This document shows positions 46,002-58,369 of a stretch of DNA of 64,000 nt, in pieces (the first letter of the stretch is position 1; each line of letters starts with the position of its first letter). The notes under the pieces were generated by a model. That model saw nothing but the letters and a program-made list of their open reading frames with translations. It had not been told where the DNA came from and ran no database searches. A program made the translations under genes and the position numbers. This stretch comes from Gammaproteobacteria bacterium (lineage in GTDB: Bacteria > Pseudomonadota > Gammaproteobacteria > GCA-001735895), in contig JACNJF010000194.1 in assembly GCA_014382695.1 (NCBI GenBank), forward strand, positions 861 to 64,860. Reading direction: 5' to 3'.

Positions 46002-46057
46002 TGGAGTGCTGGCTATTCGTCAAGCATGACGAGTAGCCATTGACTCTGGTGACCCGG

Positions 46058-46843
46058 ATGAATCTTCAATTACAACTTGCCCTTCAGGTTTTGCTGCTAC
46101 CGCTGGTACTGTCTTTTGTGGTGTGGCATGCGGGCTTAAAAAGTCATCGATTTAACCTGCTAGCATTGTTTCTAATCTGGGTTATCAGTTTTGTGTGGAT
46201 AAAAGGCATGCCAGCTTTTCCACCTGCAGAAGCGGTAGAGTGGGTGGTATTAATCGGCCTGCTGTATGCCATTATCAGTATCAGCTTTAAATCTGCCGTC
46301 ATTCCATTGCTGCTGAATGCCGCCATTTTGTTGCTTGGAATTGTAATCTTGACCTGGCCGGTACTGATCCGTGCTTCAGACCCACAGTTTTTTTTAGAAC
46401 TCTTTTTGTTTGCTTCACTCGGAATAATAATACCCCTCCTCTTGAAACGCGCTTCTCCTTCCAGTCCAGCTTTAACAGTGGGAATCAGCAATGCTGGTCT
46501 CGCTGCGATATCTGGGCTGGGTGGGAGTCTTTTAATTGGACAACTGGCTGGGGTCGCGGCCTCGTTGCTGGGTGCTTTTATACTGTATGAGCTGCTTTCA
46601 AAACTGCACAATTCTGAATTACCACCTCGATCCCTTAATCTGATGGTGAACCTGCATATCTGGCTTGCGCTAATCGCTAGAGTATATGCGGAAGTGGCAC
46701 TTATTCCCGTTGTACTGGTTAGTCTGTCGTTGTTGTTTGGTTTGACCGTTCGCTGGCGCTACGCCTCTGTAGTGTCGTTACTGTTGAGTTTGGGAGCTTT
46801 GGGCTGGTTGTTAGCGACCAGCGATAACTCCAGCTATTACTAG
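46058..46843 (+). CDS. hypothetical polytopic membrane protein
   Basis: At least 7 predicted TM helices and no motif. The track start is at 46040. Confidence 0.5.
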   Translation: MNLQLQLALQVLLLPLVLSFVVWHAGLKSHRFNLLALFLIWVISFVWIKGMPAFPPAEAVEWVVLIGLLYAIISISFKSAVIPLLLNAAILLLGIVILTWPVLIRASDPQFFLELFLFASLGIIIPLLLKRASPSSPALTVGISNAGLAAISGLGGSLLIGQLAGVAASLLGAFILYELLSKLHNSELPPRSLNLMVNLHIWLALIARVYAEVALIPVVLVSLSLLFGLTVRWRYASVVSLLLSLGALGWLLATSDNSSYY

Positions 46844-48390: not shown

Positions 48391-48527
48391 AGCTTCGAAT
48401 TCACGGGGTTAAATGAGAGGCTGGAATTAGCCTTGAGCGGGCAGCGAGTTTACCTCACGCTATGCTAGCTGAACAGCGAGGATCGGAGTAAAGTTAACCT
48501 GAAGAAGGTTAGATCGGAGGACACATC

Positions 48528-50525
48528 ATGCCTATCCGCAGGCAGGCCAGGGTATTAAAGATTGTATTCGTGCTGTTATTTGCTATCCCGTTGCTGGGAT
48601 GCTTTAACTCTGACTCTGAGTCCCCGCCAACGTTTGAGTATCGCGCCGCACTCAAGCCTTTTTCCAGCTGTGATGCACTCGCCACCTATCTACAGGATAC
48701 GGCCGAGCAGCAGAATCGTCTGAGTCAGTATTATTATGCGCTGCCGGGCATCAGTAATGCCGTGCAGGATAATGTCATCGGTATTCCGGGTGGAAATGTC
48801 GCGCTAAGTGCGGATGCTATTGCGCCGGCCATAGAAACTACCCGTACAATCAGCGAGTTTACCCAGACCAATAATCAGGTGAGTGGGGTCGATGAAGCCG
48901 ACTTCATCAAAACCGATGGCGACTATAGCTATATCGTGAGCGGTGGCTTTCTGGTCGTAGTGGATAACTGGCCAGCCGATCAAAGCTCAATACTGGCTCG
49001 GATAGCGGTGAAAGGCTTGTCTTCCAATCTGTTTGTGTATCAGGATACGGTGTGGGTCGTGAGTGATTTAATGAGCACCGACCTGTCCGCCAGTCAGATG
49101 GCCTTTGCACCCCGGGTCAATCAGTTAACCCTGATTTCAATGTTCGATATCACCGATCGCAGCAATCCGCTGTTGCTGCGTGAAACAACACTGGAAGGTT
49201 ACTATGTCGATGCCAGACGTATTGATAACCGGGTGTATCTGGTCACTTCCGCTTACTTTGATCTGTATCCGTTACTTTCTGATAATGCCAGTCCTGCGAT
49301 TGATACGTTGCTACCGAAGCTGTCCGACCGAGTGTATAACGCAGGAATCAGTAGCGTCAGTGAACAGCTGATCAGCCCCTGTGAACAGATCTATCAACCG
49401 GGTACCGCAAATGGCACCGGTACCATCACCCTGTCGACGTTTGATTTACTGACACCTCGGTCTGAGATCAAACGCCAGACCATCATCAGTAATTCAGGAA
49501 CCATCTATGCCAGTCGTGAGCATCTTTATCTGGCCACGGTAGAGGATAACTTCTGGACCTGGTTGCCCGTGCTGGAAGGCGATGAAGTTCCCAGTCCTGG
49601 TACTACCTTGCATAAATTTAGCCTGTTGCAGGAACCGGTGTATCTGGCCAGTGGACGAGTCGACGGTTATCTGTTGAATCAGTTTGCGCTGGATGAACAT
49701 AACGATTTATTGCGCATAACTACTACCAGTTTTGCGTGGTGGAACAACCAGCCGCCGCAGAACAGGCTGTATATCCTTGAGCAGCAGGGTGAGCGACTGG
49801 TGCAACGCAGTCAGCTAGATGGGCTGGGTAAGCCCGGAGAGCGCATCTATGCCACACGCTTTTTTGGTGATCAGGGTTTTGTCGTGACTTTCCAGCAGAT
49901 TGACCCGTTGTATACGCTGGATCTGAGTGATCCGGATAATCCGCAAGTTGCTGGCGAACTGGAGGTTCCTGGATTTTCCACCTATCTGCATCCTCTGGAG
50001 GATGGTCTGCTGCTGGCGATTGGACGCAACCAGAGCAATAACGCCACCGATGTCAGTCTGTTTGATACCACGGATTTTTCTCAACCGGCACTGCTGCATC
50101 GGATCTCTATCGGCAAGGACAGTTATTCGGAAGCTGAATACAATCATAAGGCCTTTACCTGGTATCCACGTGAACAGTTGTTGGCGCTGCCGGTCACGCG
50201 TTGGTCGGGTGATTTGGTGCGGGATGGTTACTCGGGCTACCGACTGTTCAACGGTCTGCAATTATATCGGGCCGACCGAGTAAATGGTTTCGCTGATGTT
50301 GGGCTGGTCGATCATAGTTCGCTGTATCAAAATAGTACGGGCCAGTTCTGGTATCAGCCGGAAAATATCCGTAGAAGTTTTTTTGTGGCTGATGACGCAA
50401 ATCAGAGTTACCTGTACTCGGTCAGCAGTCGTGGCATCAAGATCAATGCACTCGGCGATCTGGCAACGGATCTGGCGGTACTAGAATTACCCGTGTATGA
50501 CAGGCAGAATGTTCTTTTTTATTAA
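48528..50525 (+). CDS. lipoprotein with C-terminal beta-propeller domain (Beta_propel/PF09826-like)
   Basis: Lipobox LLGC. The 665-aa product has repeated beta-strand-rich segments. Family assignment is from memory of the family architecture. Confidence 0.6.
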   Translation: MPIRRQARVLKIVFVLLFAIPLLGCFNSDSESPPTFEYRAALKPFSSCDALATYLQDTAEQQNRLSQYYYALPGISNAVQDNVIGIPGGNVALSADAIAPAIETTRTISEFTQTNNQVSGVDEADFIKTDGDYSYIVSGGFLVVVDNWPADQSSILARIAVKGLSSNLFVYQDTVWVVSDLMSTDLSASQMAFAPRVNQLTLISMFDITDRSNPLLLRETTLEGYYVDARRIDNRVYLVTSAYFDLYPLLSDNASPAIDTLLPKLSDRVYNAGISSVSEQLISPCEQIYQPGTANGTGTITLSTFDLLTPRSEIKRQTIISNSGTIYASREHLYLATVEDNFWTWLPVLEGDEVPSPGTTLHKFSLLQEPVYLASGRVDGYLLNQFALDEHNDLLRITTTSFAWWNNQPPQNRLYILEQQGERLVQRSQLDGLGKPGERIYATRFFGDQGFVVTFQQIDPLYTLDLSDPDNPQVAGELEVPGFSTYLHPLEDGLLLAIGRNQSNNATDVSLFDTTDFSQPALLHRISIGKDSYSEAEYNHKAFTWYPREQLLALPVTRWSGDLVRDGYSGYRLFNGLQLYRADRVNGFADVGLVDHSSLYQNSTGQFWYQPENIRRSFFVADDANQSYLYSVSSRGIKINALGDLATDLAVLELPVYDRQNVLFY

Positions 50526-50538
50526 AGTGAGTTTCGAC

Positions 50539-50901
50539 ATGCTCAGAGCCTTCATTATATTCACGCTTGTCTTTATTCAAAACGCCTGTGTGACCAGCAG
50601 TACTGTAATCACCGGCGAAGTCAGGGAGCGGATTGAGTTTGAGGCCGTGGAAGTGTTTTTTAATACTGCGCCTGACTGTGATTTCGATGTCATCGCCCAT
50701 ATCAATATCCCAGGTACCTATTTCAACCGCGCATCGCTGATCGACGCGTTTCGCTGGAAAGCCGCTTCGGTTGGCGCTAATGCAATACAGATCCTCGATA
50801 TTCAGCCGGTTGGTGTTAACGAGATGATGGGTTCAGCCAGAGCCTTACGTTGCGAGCGTGCAGTCCCTCTGTTCAATCCGATCGAGAAAGTTGACCTTTA
50901 A
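50539..50901 (+). CDS. small putative lipoprotein (about 120 aa)
   Basis: Internal start MLRAFIIFTLVFIQNAC with a lipobox-like FIQNAC. The track ORF at 50497 overlaps the upstream gene. Confidence 0.45.
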   Translation: MLRAFIIFTLVFIQNACVTSSTVITGEVRERIEFEAVEVFFNTAPDCDFDVIAHINIPGTYFNRASLIDAFRWKAASVGANAIQILDIQPVGVNEMMGSARALRCERAVPLFNPIEKVDL

Positions 50902-50943
50902 TGATTTAGCGTTAAGCTTACACAAACTATAACAAACGGCTTC

Positions 50944-52416
50944 ATGTTCTCTTTTTCCTCCCAGTTCTCAGATGGTGAAAACAGTTACCGGCTGATTGCC
51001 GCACTGTTTCTGCGCCTGCTCGCCATCATTTATTTCATGGCCTTCTTTTCTCTCAGCTTTCAGATTACCGGGCTGGTGGGAGAGCAGGGCATACTGCCAC
51101 TCAGCCCCTGGCTGGATAGCCTGCTGAGTGAAATGGGCGGCTCGGCTTTTGTCTACTTTCCGATGTTGTTCTGGTTTGAGCAGAGCGATTTTTTCCTGCA
51201 GGCAGTAGCCTGGTCGGGTTGTGTTGTTTCAATTTCGCTATTGCTTAATATCTGGCCCAGACTGAGCCTGATCCTGCTGTTCATTTTCTATCTGTCGCTG
51301 GTTAAGGCAGGGCAGACCTTTATGAACTTTCAGTGGGATGGCTTACTGCTGGAGGCTGGATTTCTGGCAATTTTTCTACGTCCGGATTCCAGAATCCTGA
51401 TCCTGTTATTCCGCTGGTTACTGTTTCGCTTACGCTTCATGTCCGGTATTTCAAAACTGGTGATGGGCGATCCGTCCTGGCTGGGCATGACGGCGCTGAT
51501 CTATTACTTTGAAACCCAGCCGTTACCGCATGTAGGGGCCTGGTATTTTGATAACCTGCCGCAGATACTACTGATCGCCGCTACCGTTCTGGTGCTGATC
51601 ATTGAGATCATAGTGCCTTTTATGATGTTTTTACCCCGGCGTTATCGTCTGATAGCCGCCTGGGCCACGCTCGCGCTGCAAGTGCTGATTATGCTCAGCA
51701 GTAATCACAACTGGTTTAACTTTCTGACCATCGCGTTATGCCTTTTTCTGTTCGATGATAAAGCCGTGCGACGCATCGTACCGGGTGGGCTGGAACGCTG
51801 GTTGACCATGAGCTGGGCGCAACGCCTGCAAAACCCGCGCGCTCGACGTTCGGTGGCGGCGAGTTATCTGCTGGCGGGAGTGGTTACGCTGGGCGGTATC
51901 CTGAGCATCCATAAATTGGTCACCAACAGGAGTCTGGGCACTGTTGCCGATACCCTGCAGGATATCCTGCAGCAATGGCATATCGTGAATACCTATCATG
52001 TTTTCCCAACCATGACGACGCGTCAGATCGAACTTAAAATTGAAGGCTCTATCGATGGGATTAACTGGAAAGAGTATGAGTTTATCCATCGCCCAAATGC
52101 GCTATCGAAAGCACCGACGATCGTTTTCCCGCATCATCCGCGACTCGACTGGATGATGTGGTTTGTGCCGTTTCATCCACGCTTTTTACCCTGGTTTGAT
52201 GCTTTCCTGCAAACCCTGCTGGAAAACTCAGCGCAGGTAACGGCATTGCTAAAGGATAATCCGTTCAAGGACCAGGCTCCCCGCTATCTGCGTGTGAATG
52301 CCTGGCACTATGAGTTTACCAGTCCCGCCGAGCGTGAGCAGACTGGCAACTGGTGGAAACGCAGTTATCTGGGACCCTTTTACCCGCTACCCGGTAAATA
52401 CAGGATCGCGCCCTGA
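50944..52416 (+). CDS. lipase maturation factor (LMF1)/HTTM-like polytopic membrane protein
   Basis: 490-aa product with an N-terminal YRLIAALFLRLLAIIYFMAFFS hydrophobic core and many TM helices. Resembles bacterial LMF-family proteins. Confidence 0.55.
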   Translation: MFSFSSQFSDGENSYRLIAALFLRLLAIIYFMAFFSLSFQITGLVGEQGILPLSPWLDSLLSEMGGSAFVYFPMLFWFEQSDFFLQAVAWSGCVVSISLLLNIWPRLSLILLFIFYLSLVKAGQTFMNFQWDGLLLEAGFLAIFLRPDSRILILLFRWLLFRLRFMSGISKLVMGDPSWLGMTALIYYFETQPLPHVGAWYFDNLPQILLIAATVLVLIIEIIVPFMMFLPRRYRLIAAWATLALQVLIMLSSNHNWFNFLTIALCLFLFDDKAVRRIVPGGLERWLTMSWAQRLQNPRARRSVAASYLLAGVVTLGGILSIHKLVTNRSLGTVADTLQDILQQWHIVNTYHVFPTMTTRQIELKIEGSIDGINWKEYEFIHRPNALSKAPTIVFPHHPRLDWMMWFVPFHPRFLPWFDAFLQTLLENSAQVTALLKDNPFKDQAPRYLRVNAWHYEFTSPAEREQTGNWWKRSYLGPFYPLPGKYRIAP

Positions 52417-52420
52417 TGCC

Positions 52421-52588
52421 TCACTTGTGTAACTTGCCTTTATCAGTATTGGATGGTTTTTCCTGTTTATGCTCTGCCTGAGCAGGGGGATACAGACTAT
52501 CCATCATTTCCCCGGTGGTTAAAATAACCGTTATATCGTCATCGACTTCGTCGTCGTTGGCTGTTTCTCTGGGTTGCTTATCACGCAT
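52421..52588 (-). CDS. possible small acidic protein (55 aa)
   Basis: I translated this manually: MRDKQPRETANDDEVDDDITVILTTGEMMDSLYPPAQAEHKQEKPSNTDKGKLHK. SD AGAGG lies 6 nt upstream. It fits the gap between flanking genes exactly. Confidence 0.3.
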   Translation of the reverse strand: MRDKQPRETANDDEVDDDITVILTTGEMMDSLYPPAQAEHKQEKPSNTDKGKLHK

Positions 52589-52610: not shown

Positions 52611-53771
52611 TCATGCTGGCCAGTATTCCGTCTGTATGGATTCTCCTAAATCGGCATCGATCAGACGCTGTCTGACTTCGAGCAGTTTTTTAATTAATGC
52701 TGGTTCCGCCTTCTCATAGGCGGCTGCATCCGGCGCACGCTTAACAACCACGCCGAGTAATTCTGTAATCGCATTGCCTATCGAGTTCTGGCTGATGGTG
52801 ACGACCCATTTGCCACTATCGTTACGATAGATAAGCTGCTTGAAAGCCGGCTGCCAGCGTATCGCGTTGGCATATTGCGCGTTTTTAATGCACTGGTCAC
52901 GTACAATCTTGGCGGTGCTCAAAAAATCATTATTAAAGAGCAGCTTTTCTGTTACCTGTTGCGGGAAATTGACATTTTTTGGGATGGCAGCATTGCGCGT
53001 TGAAACCTGGCTGAAAAAAGTGCGGTAAAAATCGATAAACCCTTTTAGAATGATATCGTACTCTTGCCAGAATTTAACCTCCTTTATGGAATCCAGACCA
53101 CCACTAATCTCCCAGCAGGGAAGTCCCTGCGGGTAACCGGTCAACATCAGCTGCGACGAATCGCCAGTCATCGGTTTTAGTATTTCCAGCTCCAGGGTGT
53201 CGAAAAAAGCACAATAGGCATCATGCATATAGCTTTGAAACAGACTGTGCTGGCCACCATCGGTGAGGTTTGGGTTGTTAGTTTCAGCCAGCGGAGCATC
53301 ACGCAGTTGCTGTTTATCGAATACGATGAAATGATTGTGCAGCATGCGGATGCTGGGAACTCCAGCGGAGGTCAGCGGCCAGGTTGCATCCAGACTGGCT
53401 TCACCACACAGCAGCAGATGATTTTTCGGGTTGGGGAAAATCTCGTGCATGTAGCTGATCAGAATCTGGTTCATGCGGTTCCAGACATTGCGTACATTTT
53501 CCGGTACCTGAGTGCGCCTTACCGGACGACCCAGCGGATCCAGTATAACCTTGGATGTGTTGTAAATGATGGAGGCGTCGAATACATTGGAGTGTCCCAG
53601 CGCCTTCCGATACATTAACAGGTTTTCATCGTTGCGTAACAGACCGTTGTTATGCTCAAGATCATTCAGGTTTTCTGTGCTGTTGAAAAATTCATTCGGT
53701 TTCATACCTTCTGGCACATCCAGTGGAATGGGCCGGAATGGCGTGGTTATTTCTCTTGGTCCGGTGGTCAT
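52611..53771 (-). CDS. hypothetical protein (386 aa), no recognisable family
   Basis: Long ORF with coding-like composition. Contains LHNHFIVF, a possible HxHxx histidine motif. Monocistronic apart from the small downstream ORF. Confidence 0.7.
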   Translation of the reverse strand: MTTGPREITTPFRPIPLDVPEGMKPNEFFNSTENLNDLEHNNGLLRNDENLLMYRKALGHSNVFDASIIYNTSKVILDPLGRPVRRTQVPENVRNVWNRMNQILISYMHEIFPNPKNHLLLCGEASLDATWPLTSAGVPSIRMLHNHFIVFDKQQLRDAPLAETNNPNLTDGGQHSLFQSYMHDAYCAFFDTLELEILKPMTGDSSQLMLTGYPQGLPCWEISGGLDSIKEVKFWQEYDIILKGFIDFYRTFFSQVSTRNAAIPKNVNFPQQVTEKLLFNNDFLSTAKIVRDQCIKNAQYANAIRWQPAFKQLIYRNDSGKWVVTISQNSIGNAITELLGVVVKRAPDAAAYEKAEPALIKKLLEVRQRLIDADLGESIQTEYWPA

Positions 53772-56785: not shown

Positions 56786-58369
56786 CTAGTTTTTAATCAG
56801 CTTCAGAACATCACTGTTTGAGATTAAGGCTATTGGCTGAAAGTTGATGTAACGCGGCATCTTGTTGAGCGTTTCGGTAACCTGAGCCTGGTCATCGAAC
56901 TGACCGCCGTAGATCAGGTTGTATTGATCTTTATCATCGATGAAGTAAGCCAGCTCCTGGGTAAAGTAGTGATTGTAACGTTGCGCTATTTCAAACAGTT
57001 CCTGCTTTTTGGCAACCGTGGCAACCTTGATGGAATACTTGTCAGGATTCAGTTTGACCAGCCATTGTGACCCATGAATGGTATTCTTCGAGCCAAAGTT
57101 ATACAGTGGTGCGAGATATTGAACGCGCCCATCCAGGCTTTCGACTTCATCGTTCATTGCTTTCATATCCTGCTGGATCAGCTGGGTTTTTTCCTGCAAA
57201 TCCTGTTGAACCTGATTCAGGTTTTTCTGTAACTCGATGATTTCAGAGTAAAATACCTGCGATGCCATCTGCTCATCCTGCACTCGACTCTCCAGCTGTG
57301 TGACCTGTTCGTTGATGACTTCATTATGCTGAACGGTAACCGCCTGTTGCGTATCACGTTGATATTCTGCGTAAAAAAAGATGGCGATCACGGCCAGCAA
57401 TAACAGTAAACTCGATGCCGCCAGTGCTTTGAAATGCTTTCTCTCCAGACTTGCCAGTGCCAGCAGGGTACGCGTCAGGGAACCGGTTTTGTCACTCAGG
57501 GTATCGATCTGTCCCTGTTGTTCGATATTCTGTTGCTGCAGACGCGCGGTATGTAATTCGAGTGCCTCCACATCTCCAGACAGCTTGCTGGTCAGTATAT
57601 CCAGGGTGTCGGTGGAGTCTTTCAGTGTTTCACTGTCTTCGATCAGTTTGGCAGAAACCGCTTCCAGAGAAGCGGCACGCTTTTCCAGTGCTGCATCGAC
57701 GCTTTGCATCAGCAGCATTTTTGCTTTCTGGCTATCAATCGCTTTATCAGCGGACTTTATCTTGCTGTCCAGCGTATCATCACGCTGTTGAGTCGACTGA
57801 GCGAGTTGCTCTAGTTCAGCGATAATTTTTACTTCCAGTGTAGTAATCGCCTTGCTGTTATCTTTGATGCTTTTGTTCAATTTGGTGCTGATTGTCGATA
57901 CTTTTTTGGATAAAGTTTCGGCACGCGCAATCAGATCCACATGCTGCTGTCTAAATTCGACATTGACTTCAGTCTGGCTTTGAATAGCTTCATTCAGCGC
58001 CTTGCTGGATGATTTTTCGAATGATTTGATCGCGCTGTTGACCGCTTTCAAATCGCTGCTCATCTTATTTGACTGCAGGTTTAATTCCTTAAAGGATGTT
58101 TCGATGATTCCTAGCTGCTTATAAGTGTCAGCTACTTTTTCAGACAGTCCTGCTTCCGATGTTGACAGGCGTTCGACATCGGTATTGATCTGTTTGTTGC
58201 TGCTATTGATTTTTTTATTCAGTTTGGCAATGGTAGCTTCCAGAGCCGACATCTGTTTATTAATTTCCATCACCTGTTTTTCCTTGCCGTTTTCCTGCAA
58301 TGGAACCAGATTACCTTTTGCCACAGGGGCATCGCTGACTTTATCCAGCTTTTTATTTTCTTGAGCCAT
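56786..58369 (-). CDS. bitopic coiled-coil protein with C-terminal SPOR domain (DamX-like)
   Basis: Long heptad-rich N-terminal region, one TM helix (LLLLLAVIAIFFYA), and a C-terminal region about 90 aa long with the SPOR-like pattern YSIKVATV...YNLIYGGQF. Confidence 0.6.
   Translation of the reverse strand: MAQENKKLDKVSDAPVAKGNLVPLQENGKEKQVMEINKQMSALEATIAKLNKKINSSNKQINTDVERLSTSEAGLSEKVADTYKQLGIIETSFKELNLQSNKMSSDLKAVNSAIKSFEKSSSKALNEAIQSQTEVNVEFRQQHVDLIARAETLSKKVSTISTKLNKSIKDNSKAITTLEVKIIAELEQLAQSTQQRDDTLDSKIKSADKAIDSQKAKMLLMQSVDAALEKRAASLEAVSAKLIEDSETLKDSTDTLDILTSKLSGDVEALELHTARLQQQNIEQQGQIDTLSDKTGSLTRTLLALASLERKHFKALAASSLLLLLAVIAIFFYAEYQRDTQQAVTVQHNEVINEQVTQLESRVQDEQMASQVFYSEIIELQKNLNQVQQDLQEKTQLIQQDMKAMNDEVESLDGRVQYLAPLYNFGSKNTIHGSQWLVKLNPDKYSIKVATVAKKQELFEIAQRYNHYFTQELAYFIDDKDQYNLIYGGQFDDQAQVTETLNKMPRYINFQPIALISNSDVLKLIKN

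Follow-up and report, generated by a model that had tools for sequence, protein, structure and literature searches.

In a 64,000-nucleotide stretch of contig JACNJF010000194.1 (assembly GCA_014382695.1, Gammaproteobacteria bacterium), referred to here as the window, three genes follow one another between positions 48528 and 52416. They encode a β-propeller lipoprotein (A), a small lipoprotein (B) and a polytopic membrane protein of the LMF1, or lipase maturation factor, family (C). We conclude that the cluster probably reflects lineage-specific synteny of three envelope genes, without a dedicated, conserved three-component system or an obligate three-way function (probability approx. 0.6). The only recurrent association is that of B with C, and it is limited to one uncultured gammaproteobacterial lineage. 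Each of the three proteins can be assigned to a known family or fold, and A and C are already named in public annotation.

Conservation of the gene neighbourhood

All neighbourhood comparisons drew on metagenome-assembled genomes (MAGs) or metagenome contigs, with flanks of up to 8 kb. The scan for LMF1 homologues, restricted to one genome per species, yielded 80 loci, all but four of which are titled gammaproteobacterial or Pseudomonadota MAGs. Twelve of them (LMF1 identity 67–80%) share the neighbourhood of the window. A convergent 386-aa gene, designated D_386 (82–86% identity), is present in all 12, the downstream EamA gene in all except L007, and B in 11; the exception for B is L010, a contig that starts inside LMF1, where the upstream side is not visible. 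Within 8 kb of the 68 remaining LMF1 genes (48–56% identity), tblastn detected no propeller, B or D_386, and a search of the same loci with the B profile (hmmsearch --max) returned nothing. Clustering of all the open reading frames (ORFs) flanking these 68 genes revealed no neighbour family common to more than nine loci, and a small ORF with a lipobox adjoins LMF1 in only four. Since the distant loci lack a recurrent partner, bacterial LMF1 is typically solitary across the sampled Gammaproteobacteria.

The same neighbourhood was viewed from the second gene by a census of 24 distinct B variants (≤95% mutual identity), for which all loci were pooled, including those of a metagenome scan that used 13 closer B sequences and gave 12 loci, most of them short. 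All 24 come from a single uncultured gammaproteobacterial lineage. LMF1 adjoins B in 18 loci (gaps of 28–185 nt), nine times in the order B–C and nine times in the order C–B, and lies 2.0–3.6 kb away in two more (L003/L007 and L017), with two opposite-strand genes intervening in L003/L007. No LMF1 was seen near B in the other four, two of which (L087/L088 and L089) have at least 6 kb visible on each side while two (L106 and L108) are short contigs. The propeller is found directly upstream of B in seven of the 24 loci (gaps of 16–221 nt), and in two of those seven it is parted from LMF1 by 2–3.6 kb of other genes. The A–B–C order of the window recurs in four other distinct relatives (L005, L008, L009 and L097). 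The order in L103 is a minus-strand DUF188 gene, then B, then C, with no propeller; the propeller is thus an optional insertion, placed between DUF188 and B. The sister group (L087–L089) resembles the window in having the same small acidic minus-strand ORF, together with fumC, after B, but it has no LMF1, no D_386 and no propeller.

Propeller homologues at 38–50% identity to A were found in four contexts, all unrelated to the window. These lie beside a TonB-dependent receptor cluster in Candidatus Thiodiazotropha (48% identity), following a molybdopterin oxidoreductase at the end of a contig in a Desulfuromonadales MAG (43%), beside unrelated genes (39%) and overlapping a Peptidase_C92 gene (50%). 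In none of the four was there an LMF1 gene, or a called gene of the size of B, beside the propeller, and a B-profile search of three distant propeller loci (L092–L094) was negative. As a control for synteny we considered the unrelated neighbours D_386 and EamA, whose synteny over the clade equals that of B and C, so that finding genes side by side at such a phylogenetic depth is weak evidence of function.

The three genes and their products

All three plus-strand ORFs were confirmed at the positions given by the initial annotation, which had been made from the sequence alone (table 1). It had described the second gene as overlapping or abutting the first, and both descriptions hold, depending on the start codon: the mechanically called ORF (50497–50901) overlaps A by 29 nt, while all B homologues start at the position of an internal ATG (50539, MLRAFII...), and with this start B begins 13 nt after the stop codon of A. 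The gap before C, put at 42 nt, measures exactly that. A consensus scan found no terminator-like site in the A–B or B–C gap, and promoter-like sites in a scan of the same type were at or below the number expected from shuffled sequence. Given the short gaps and the lack of a visible terminator-like site, A, B and C may be co-transcribed in this genome and could form one transcript. No Rfam family was found anywhere in the window at gathering thresholds, so the cluster is not accounted for by a riboswitch or leader, and the absence of a PADLOC match indicates that it is not a known defence system.

On sequence grounds, A is an ordinary member of PF09826 (Beta_propel) and a lipoprotein propeller. 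The profile match (E = 1.7e-127, 426.7 bits against a cut-off of 22.4) covers profile positions 2–494 of 495 and residues 112–644 of the protein, and nothing sets A apart from this family, which is described as ‘secreted protein with C-terminal beta-propeller domain’. The N-terminus, MPIRRQARVLKIVFVLLFAIPLLGC, contains the lipobox LLGC, with Cys25 encoded at 48600–48602. Its close homologues typically have an N-terminus of this lipoprotein kind, and 42 of 54 show a strict-pattern lipobox near residue 24. The first gene had been annotated as a β-propeller lipoprotein, and the profile match and Cys25 bear this out. An identical protein is named ‘beta-propeller domain-containing protein’ in the NCBI annotation of a Gammaproteobacteria bacterium MAG. 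A search of PDB sequences with A gave no match, and literature searches on PF09826 and COG4880 found no paper with functional context.

B matches no curated family above threshold. An alignment of 34 relatives revealed the lipobox cysteine (Cys17), two further invariant cysteines (Cys47 and Cys105) and a C-terminal motif, GSARA(I/L)RC. The lipobox consensus of the family is L-x-[GA]-C, i.e. L-L-(S/T)-(G/A)-C, in agreement with the earlier description of B as a small lipoprotein, although the window copy is atypical: it reads IQNAC (residues 13–17, 50575–50589), with Gln at −3 and Asn at −2, and lipidation of this copy is thus less certain than for the family. A close relative, P0128, has IQTAC. 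The structure of B was modelled with AlphaFold2 (AF2) from the 34-sequence alignment with high confidence (predicted local distance difference test score, pLDDT, 89.4), and the model has a fold like that of RcsF, FvfA and YdgH. Weak Pfam matches below threshold point the same way: YdgH_BhsA-like (best E = 0.0061) in eight of the 34 members, DUF4156 (best E = 0.016) in two, and DUF4156 or YbjQ_1 in distant relatives. An exhaustive profile search collected 39 cluster representatives at E ≤ 1e-10 and 695 at E ≤ 1e-3, which suggests that B is a narrow subfamily inside a broad group of small lipoproteins.

The likeness of B to these proteins is one of fold. Identity to the group of RcsF, FvfA, YdgH/BhsA (DUF1471), DUF4156 and YbjQ is only 13–15%, no match to DUF4156 or YdgH_BhsA-like reached the gathering score, and B does not belong to the RcsF family by sequence. 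RcsF carries four cysteines, compared with the two conserved in B besides that of the lipobox, and no Rcs pathway gene is present among the annotated neighbours of B in the window. B is probably exported, lipidated and held by a single disulfide, and by analogy with RcsF or FvfA it may be an outer-membrane lipoprotein.

By its profile matches, C is a true LMF1-family protein. PF06762 (LMF1) matches residues 127–275 (E = 8.7e-48, 162.9 bits, cut-off 27, profile positions 1–161 of 163) and PF25179 (LMF1_C) residues 347–481 (E = 5.8e-41, 140.2 bits, cut-off 34.2, profile positions 1–139 of 139). The third gene had been called an LMF1-type polytopic protein, and with both scores far above their cut-offs this identification stands; the Pfam profiles proposed at that stage as a check thus supported the LMF1 and the Beta_propel assignments alike. 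An identical protein is annotated as ‘lipase maturation factor family protein’ in an NCBI Gammaproteobacteria bacterium MAG. Kyte–Doolittle analysis indicated six to seven hydrophobic helices, and the loop that precedes the last of these (residues 255–303) contains eight Lys/Arg residues, from which, by the positive-inside rule, we infer that residues 323–490, with the LMF1_C domain, are periplasmic. The predicted membrane core is GGCX-like and rich in invariant polar residues, for example in the motifs FQWD, LLLE and SNHNW; D132, E137, K171, H255 and N254/N256 are among the invariant polar positions of the protein. C contains only two cysteines: Cys93 is invariant and Cys266 nearly so.

The AF2 model of C is of low confidence (pLDDT 61.5), because the alignment held only 14 sequences, and was not used for residue-level inference. 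Its only significant matches in the PDB, found with Foldseek, were 15 entries of human GGCX, the vitamin-K γ-carboxylase (E = 8e-5 to 3e-2, probability 1.00, query-normalised TM-score 0.41–0.50), a result that is supportive of a GGCX-like fold and fits the known relationship between LMF1 and HTTM. The initial annotation had also called the protein HTTM-like; the modelled fold agrees with this, while at the sequence level C has no match to PF05090 (HTTM) at E ≤ 0.1, nor to any PDB chain with either a single-sequence or a profile search. Bacterial HTTM proteins with enzymatic roles, such as MloH, are cited in bioRxiv 10.64898/2026.08.19.745780. No DCC or DUF5819 partner gene is present among the annotated neighbours of C in the window.

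The description of LMF1 proteins as eukaryote-typical proved misleading. Among 8,000 candidates scored from a genome and metagenome protein collection, more than 5,658 were LMF1-family homologues at E ≤ 0.001, so the family is not rare in prokaryotes, and all source names among the matches listed are bacterial. The accompanying remark that these bacterial homologues are poorly understood is consistent with our full-text literature searches, which found no paper on bacterial LMF1.

With eukaryotic LMF1, C shares both Pfam domains, far above thresholds, and it may share a polytopic architecture with the large C-terminal domain on the non-cytoplasmic side; the C-terminal tail of human LMF1 faces the lumen of the endoplasmic reticulum (ER) (PMC11526315). 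The two differ in other respects. Human LMF1 has eight conserved cysteines implicated in redox function (PMC11526315), a set that was not found in C when cysteines were counted without positional matching, and that C, with two, cannot carry in full. The human protein has a five-transmembrane-helix model, and more helices are predicted for C. In eukaryotes, LMF1 is linked to how disulfide-bonded secreted proteins mature and to the redox balance of the ER, and it has been termed a chaperone and also an ER redox-balance factor (PMC11526315). No lipase client is evident for C.

Several genomes encode a pair of LMF1 paralogues at different loci, each approximately 50–54% identical to C: L020 and L042 (CP070838.1), L024 and L046 (CALODJ01), L019 and L057 (JABDQW01), L025 and L037 (JASFVM01), L035 and L041 (CAZRKQ01), and L023 and L045 (JAASSE01). 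These pairs indicate that LMF1 has been duplicated within Thiotrichales-like Gammaproteobacteria. Three loci of the LMF1 scan (L034, L047 and L051) carry an LMF1 of gammaproteobacterial type (52–53% identity) in MAGs titled ‘Halobacteria archaeon’. Further bins obtained from these samples (MFD03551 and Site_C) bear the title Gammaproteobacteria, and the three are probably mislabelled or mis-binned MAGs, not instances of archaeal LMF1.

Competing explanations of the cluster

Under lineage-specific synteny, C would be an inner membrane protein, usually encoded by a solitary gene, with a GGCX/HTTM-like helical core and a periplasmic LMF1_C domain. Eukaryotic LMF1 is a folding and redox helper for disulfide-bonded secreted proteins, and GGCX a quinone-dependent modifier of secreted proteins; by analogy with them, C would most probably act, be it as an enzyme, a redox conduit or a chaperone, on a periplasmic protein or on a membrane lipid or quinone substrate. 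B would be a small lipoprotein of RcsF/FvfA-like fold with a probable single disulfide, and A a lipoprotein propeller inserted optionally upstream of it. The two orders of B and C could have arisen by tandem duplication of C–B followed by loss of the outer copies, without selection for adjacency. The adjacency of B and C could thus be explained by shared descent together with duplication and loss, and could also reflect a lineage-specific partnership.

Several points weigh against synteny as the whole explanation. The shared orientation and the gaps, 13 and 42 nt long, are compatible with an operon here, and operon partners are often functionally related. The adjacency of B and C is kept in at least three arrangements (A–B–C, B–C without A, and C–B), which goes beyond simple inherited synteny. 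Partner genes encoded elsewhere in a genome are invisible with flanks of up to 8 kb, and the fold match of C, owing to its low pLDDT, is only supportive. The probabilities attached to this and the following three readings overlap in part.

The possibility that comes next, which we regard as tentative, is that B and C form a lineage-specific pair in which B is a client or accessory subunit, C aids its folding, redox state or periplasmic modification, and the propeller is optional. The association of B with LMF1 survives three arrangements, and is in this respect stronger than the linkage of the propeller with LMF1: C adjoins B in 18 of the 24 loci and lies within 3.6 kb in two more, in both orders and with or without the propeller. 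The mature domain of B has two invariant cysteines, and eukaryotic LMF1 has been linked to disulfide-bonded secreted proteins and ER redox balance (PMC11526315). Set against these points, B occurs without C within 6–7 kb in L087–L089 and without an adjoining C in L106, neither B nor a recurrent small lipoprotein accompanies any of the 68 more distant LMF1 genes, and C has only two cysteines compared with the eight conserved redox cysteines of human LMF1. Moreover, every positive case comes from one lineage in which D_386 and EamA are equally syntenic, and tandem duplication followed by loss can flip the order neutrally. A more specific proposal, in which C has B as its natural client or subunit, is, in our estimate, improbable.

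It is also unlikely, if slightly less so than that specific proposal, that A and B constitute a two-lipoprotein unit, possibly translationally coupled, which was inserted beside an unrelated LMF1 gene. B directly follows the propeller in all seven propeller-bearing loci, it stays with the propeller and not with C where other genes intervene (L003/L007 and L017), and in the window the two genes are separated by 13 nt, or overlap if the upstream start is used. However, 17 of the 24 B loci have no adjoining propeller in view (in three of these, 330 nt or less is visible upstream of B), L103 carries DUF188, B and C without it, and no B-like gene lies downstream of the propeller homologues at 38–50% identity. 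In three genomes the A–B gap is approximately 200 nt, and translational coupling is therefore not conserved.

The initial annotation had seen in the linkage a three-gene module for envelope protein maturation or modification, in which the LMF1/HTTM-like protein matures the secreted propeller lipoprotein, and although the genes are tightly spaced and co-oriented in the window, their order is repeated in the four relatives named above and the relatives in eukaryotes, LMF1 and GGCX, have secreted proteins as their targets, we consider this very improbable, because neighbourhood conservation, which that annotation had itself proposed as a check, fails: the propeller accompanies none of the 68 more distant LMF1 genes, LMF1 none of the four more distant propellers, and the propeller only seven of the 24 B loci, while at least nine distinct genomes or contigs of the clade carry C and B with no propeller within 1.7–9.5 kb upstream, and two have intervening opposite-strand genes. 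Only part of one lineage shows the linkage of propeller and LMF1, which is broken repeatedly and lends no support to a propeller-maturation module.

Neighbouring genes and implications for the LMF1 family

The product of D_386, which is convergent with the LMF1 gene, is predicted to be cytoplasmic. Across the clade it is more conserved (82–86% identity) than LMF1 itself (67–80%), and it accompanies this LMF1 subclade in every full-length locus sampled, whereas neither the sister loci that have B alone nor any of the 68 distant LMF1 loci contain it. It has no Pfam (E ≤ 10), NCBIfam or PADLOC match, and a PDB sequence search returned only noise. By eye only, the stretch MLHNHFIVFD resembles a histidine-triad motif.

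All related loci, those with B alone among them, have a conserved tiny acidic minus-strand ORF of 34–40 aa between LMF1 (or B) and the gene that follows. Its pattern is M-x-(D/E)-(D/E)-(D/E)-T-(V/I/L)-(V/I)-(L/M)-(T/S)-x-(E/D)-(E/D)-K, after which comes an acidic tail. This ORF is without annotation and may encode a real micro-protein. Two further genes of the window lack a confident family assignment (table 1); in related loci a protein of 516–588 aa, likewise without a confident family match, occupies the same position as the 527-aa protein.

Table 1. Coordinates of the genes and other features discussed (positions are those of the window unless a locus is named).
Feature	Position	Strand	Remarks
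267-aa protein	46040-46843	+	no Pfam/NCBIfam match
Shine-Dalgarno-like GGAGG	48516-48520	+	7 nt 5' of the gene A ATG; read from sequence
Gene A, 665-aa PF09826 beta-propeller lipoprotein	48528-50525	+	Pfam, lipobox
Gene B, 120-aa small lipoprotein	50539-50901	+	start set by homologues; alternative upstream ATG 50497
Gene C, 490-aa LMF1-family polytopic membrane protein	50944-52416	+	Pfam, hydropathy, Foldseek
Tiny acidic ORF, window copy	52421-52588	-	...DDDITVILTTGE... inside a 55-aa ORF
D_386, 386-aa predicted cytoplasmic protein	52611-53771	-	convergent with the LMF1 gene
527-aa protein	56786-58369	-	only weak SMC-like coiled-coil matches
Tiny acidic ORF, relatives	L005:7473-7583, L003:7470-7589, L001:7856-7972, L006:7870-7992	-	
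Tiny acidic ORF, relatives	L090:8930-9040, L087:7502-7606, L089:6550-6654	-	

The main value of these observations is negative: LMF1 genes are mostly solitary in the sampled gammaproteobacterial genomes and lack a conserved operon partner. The question of LMF1 mechanism would become testable with a bacterial LMF1 whose client is defined; the locus supplies no such client in the propeller, and B is a weak candidate partner. If B were nonetheless to prove a client or subunit of C, B and LMF1 together would offer the first prokaryotic model, amenable to genetics, of LMF1-type action on secreted proteins, for which a transmembrane redox relay, folding assistance or GGCX-like covalent modification would be the possible modes.

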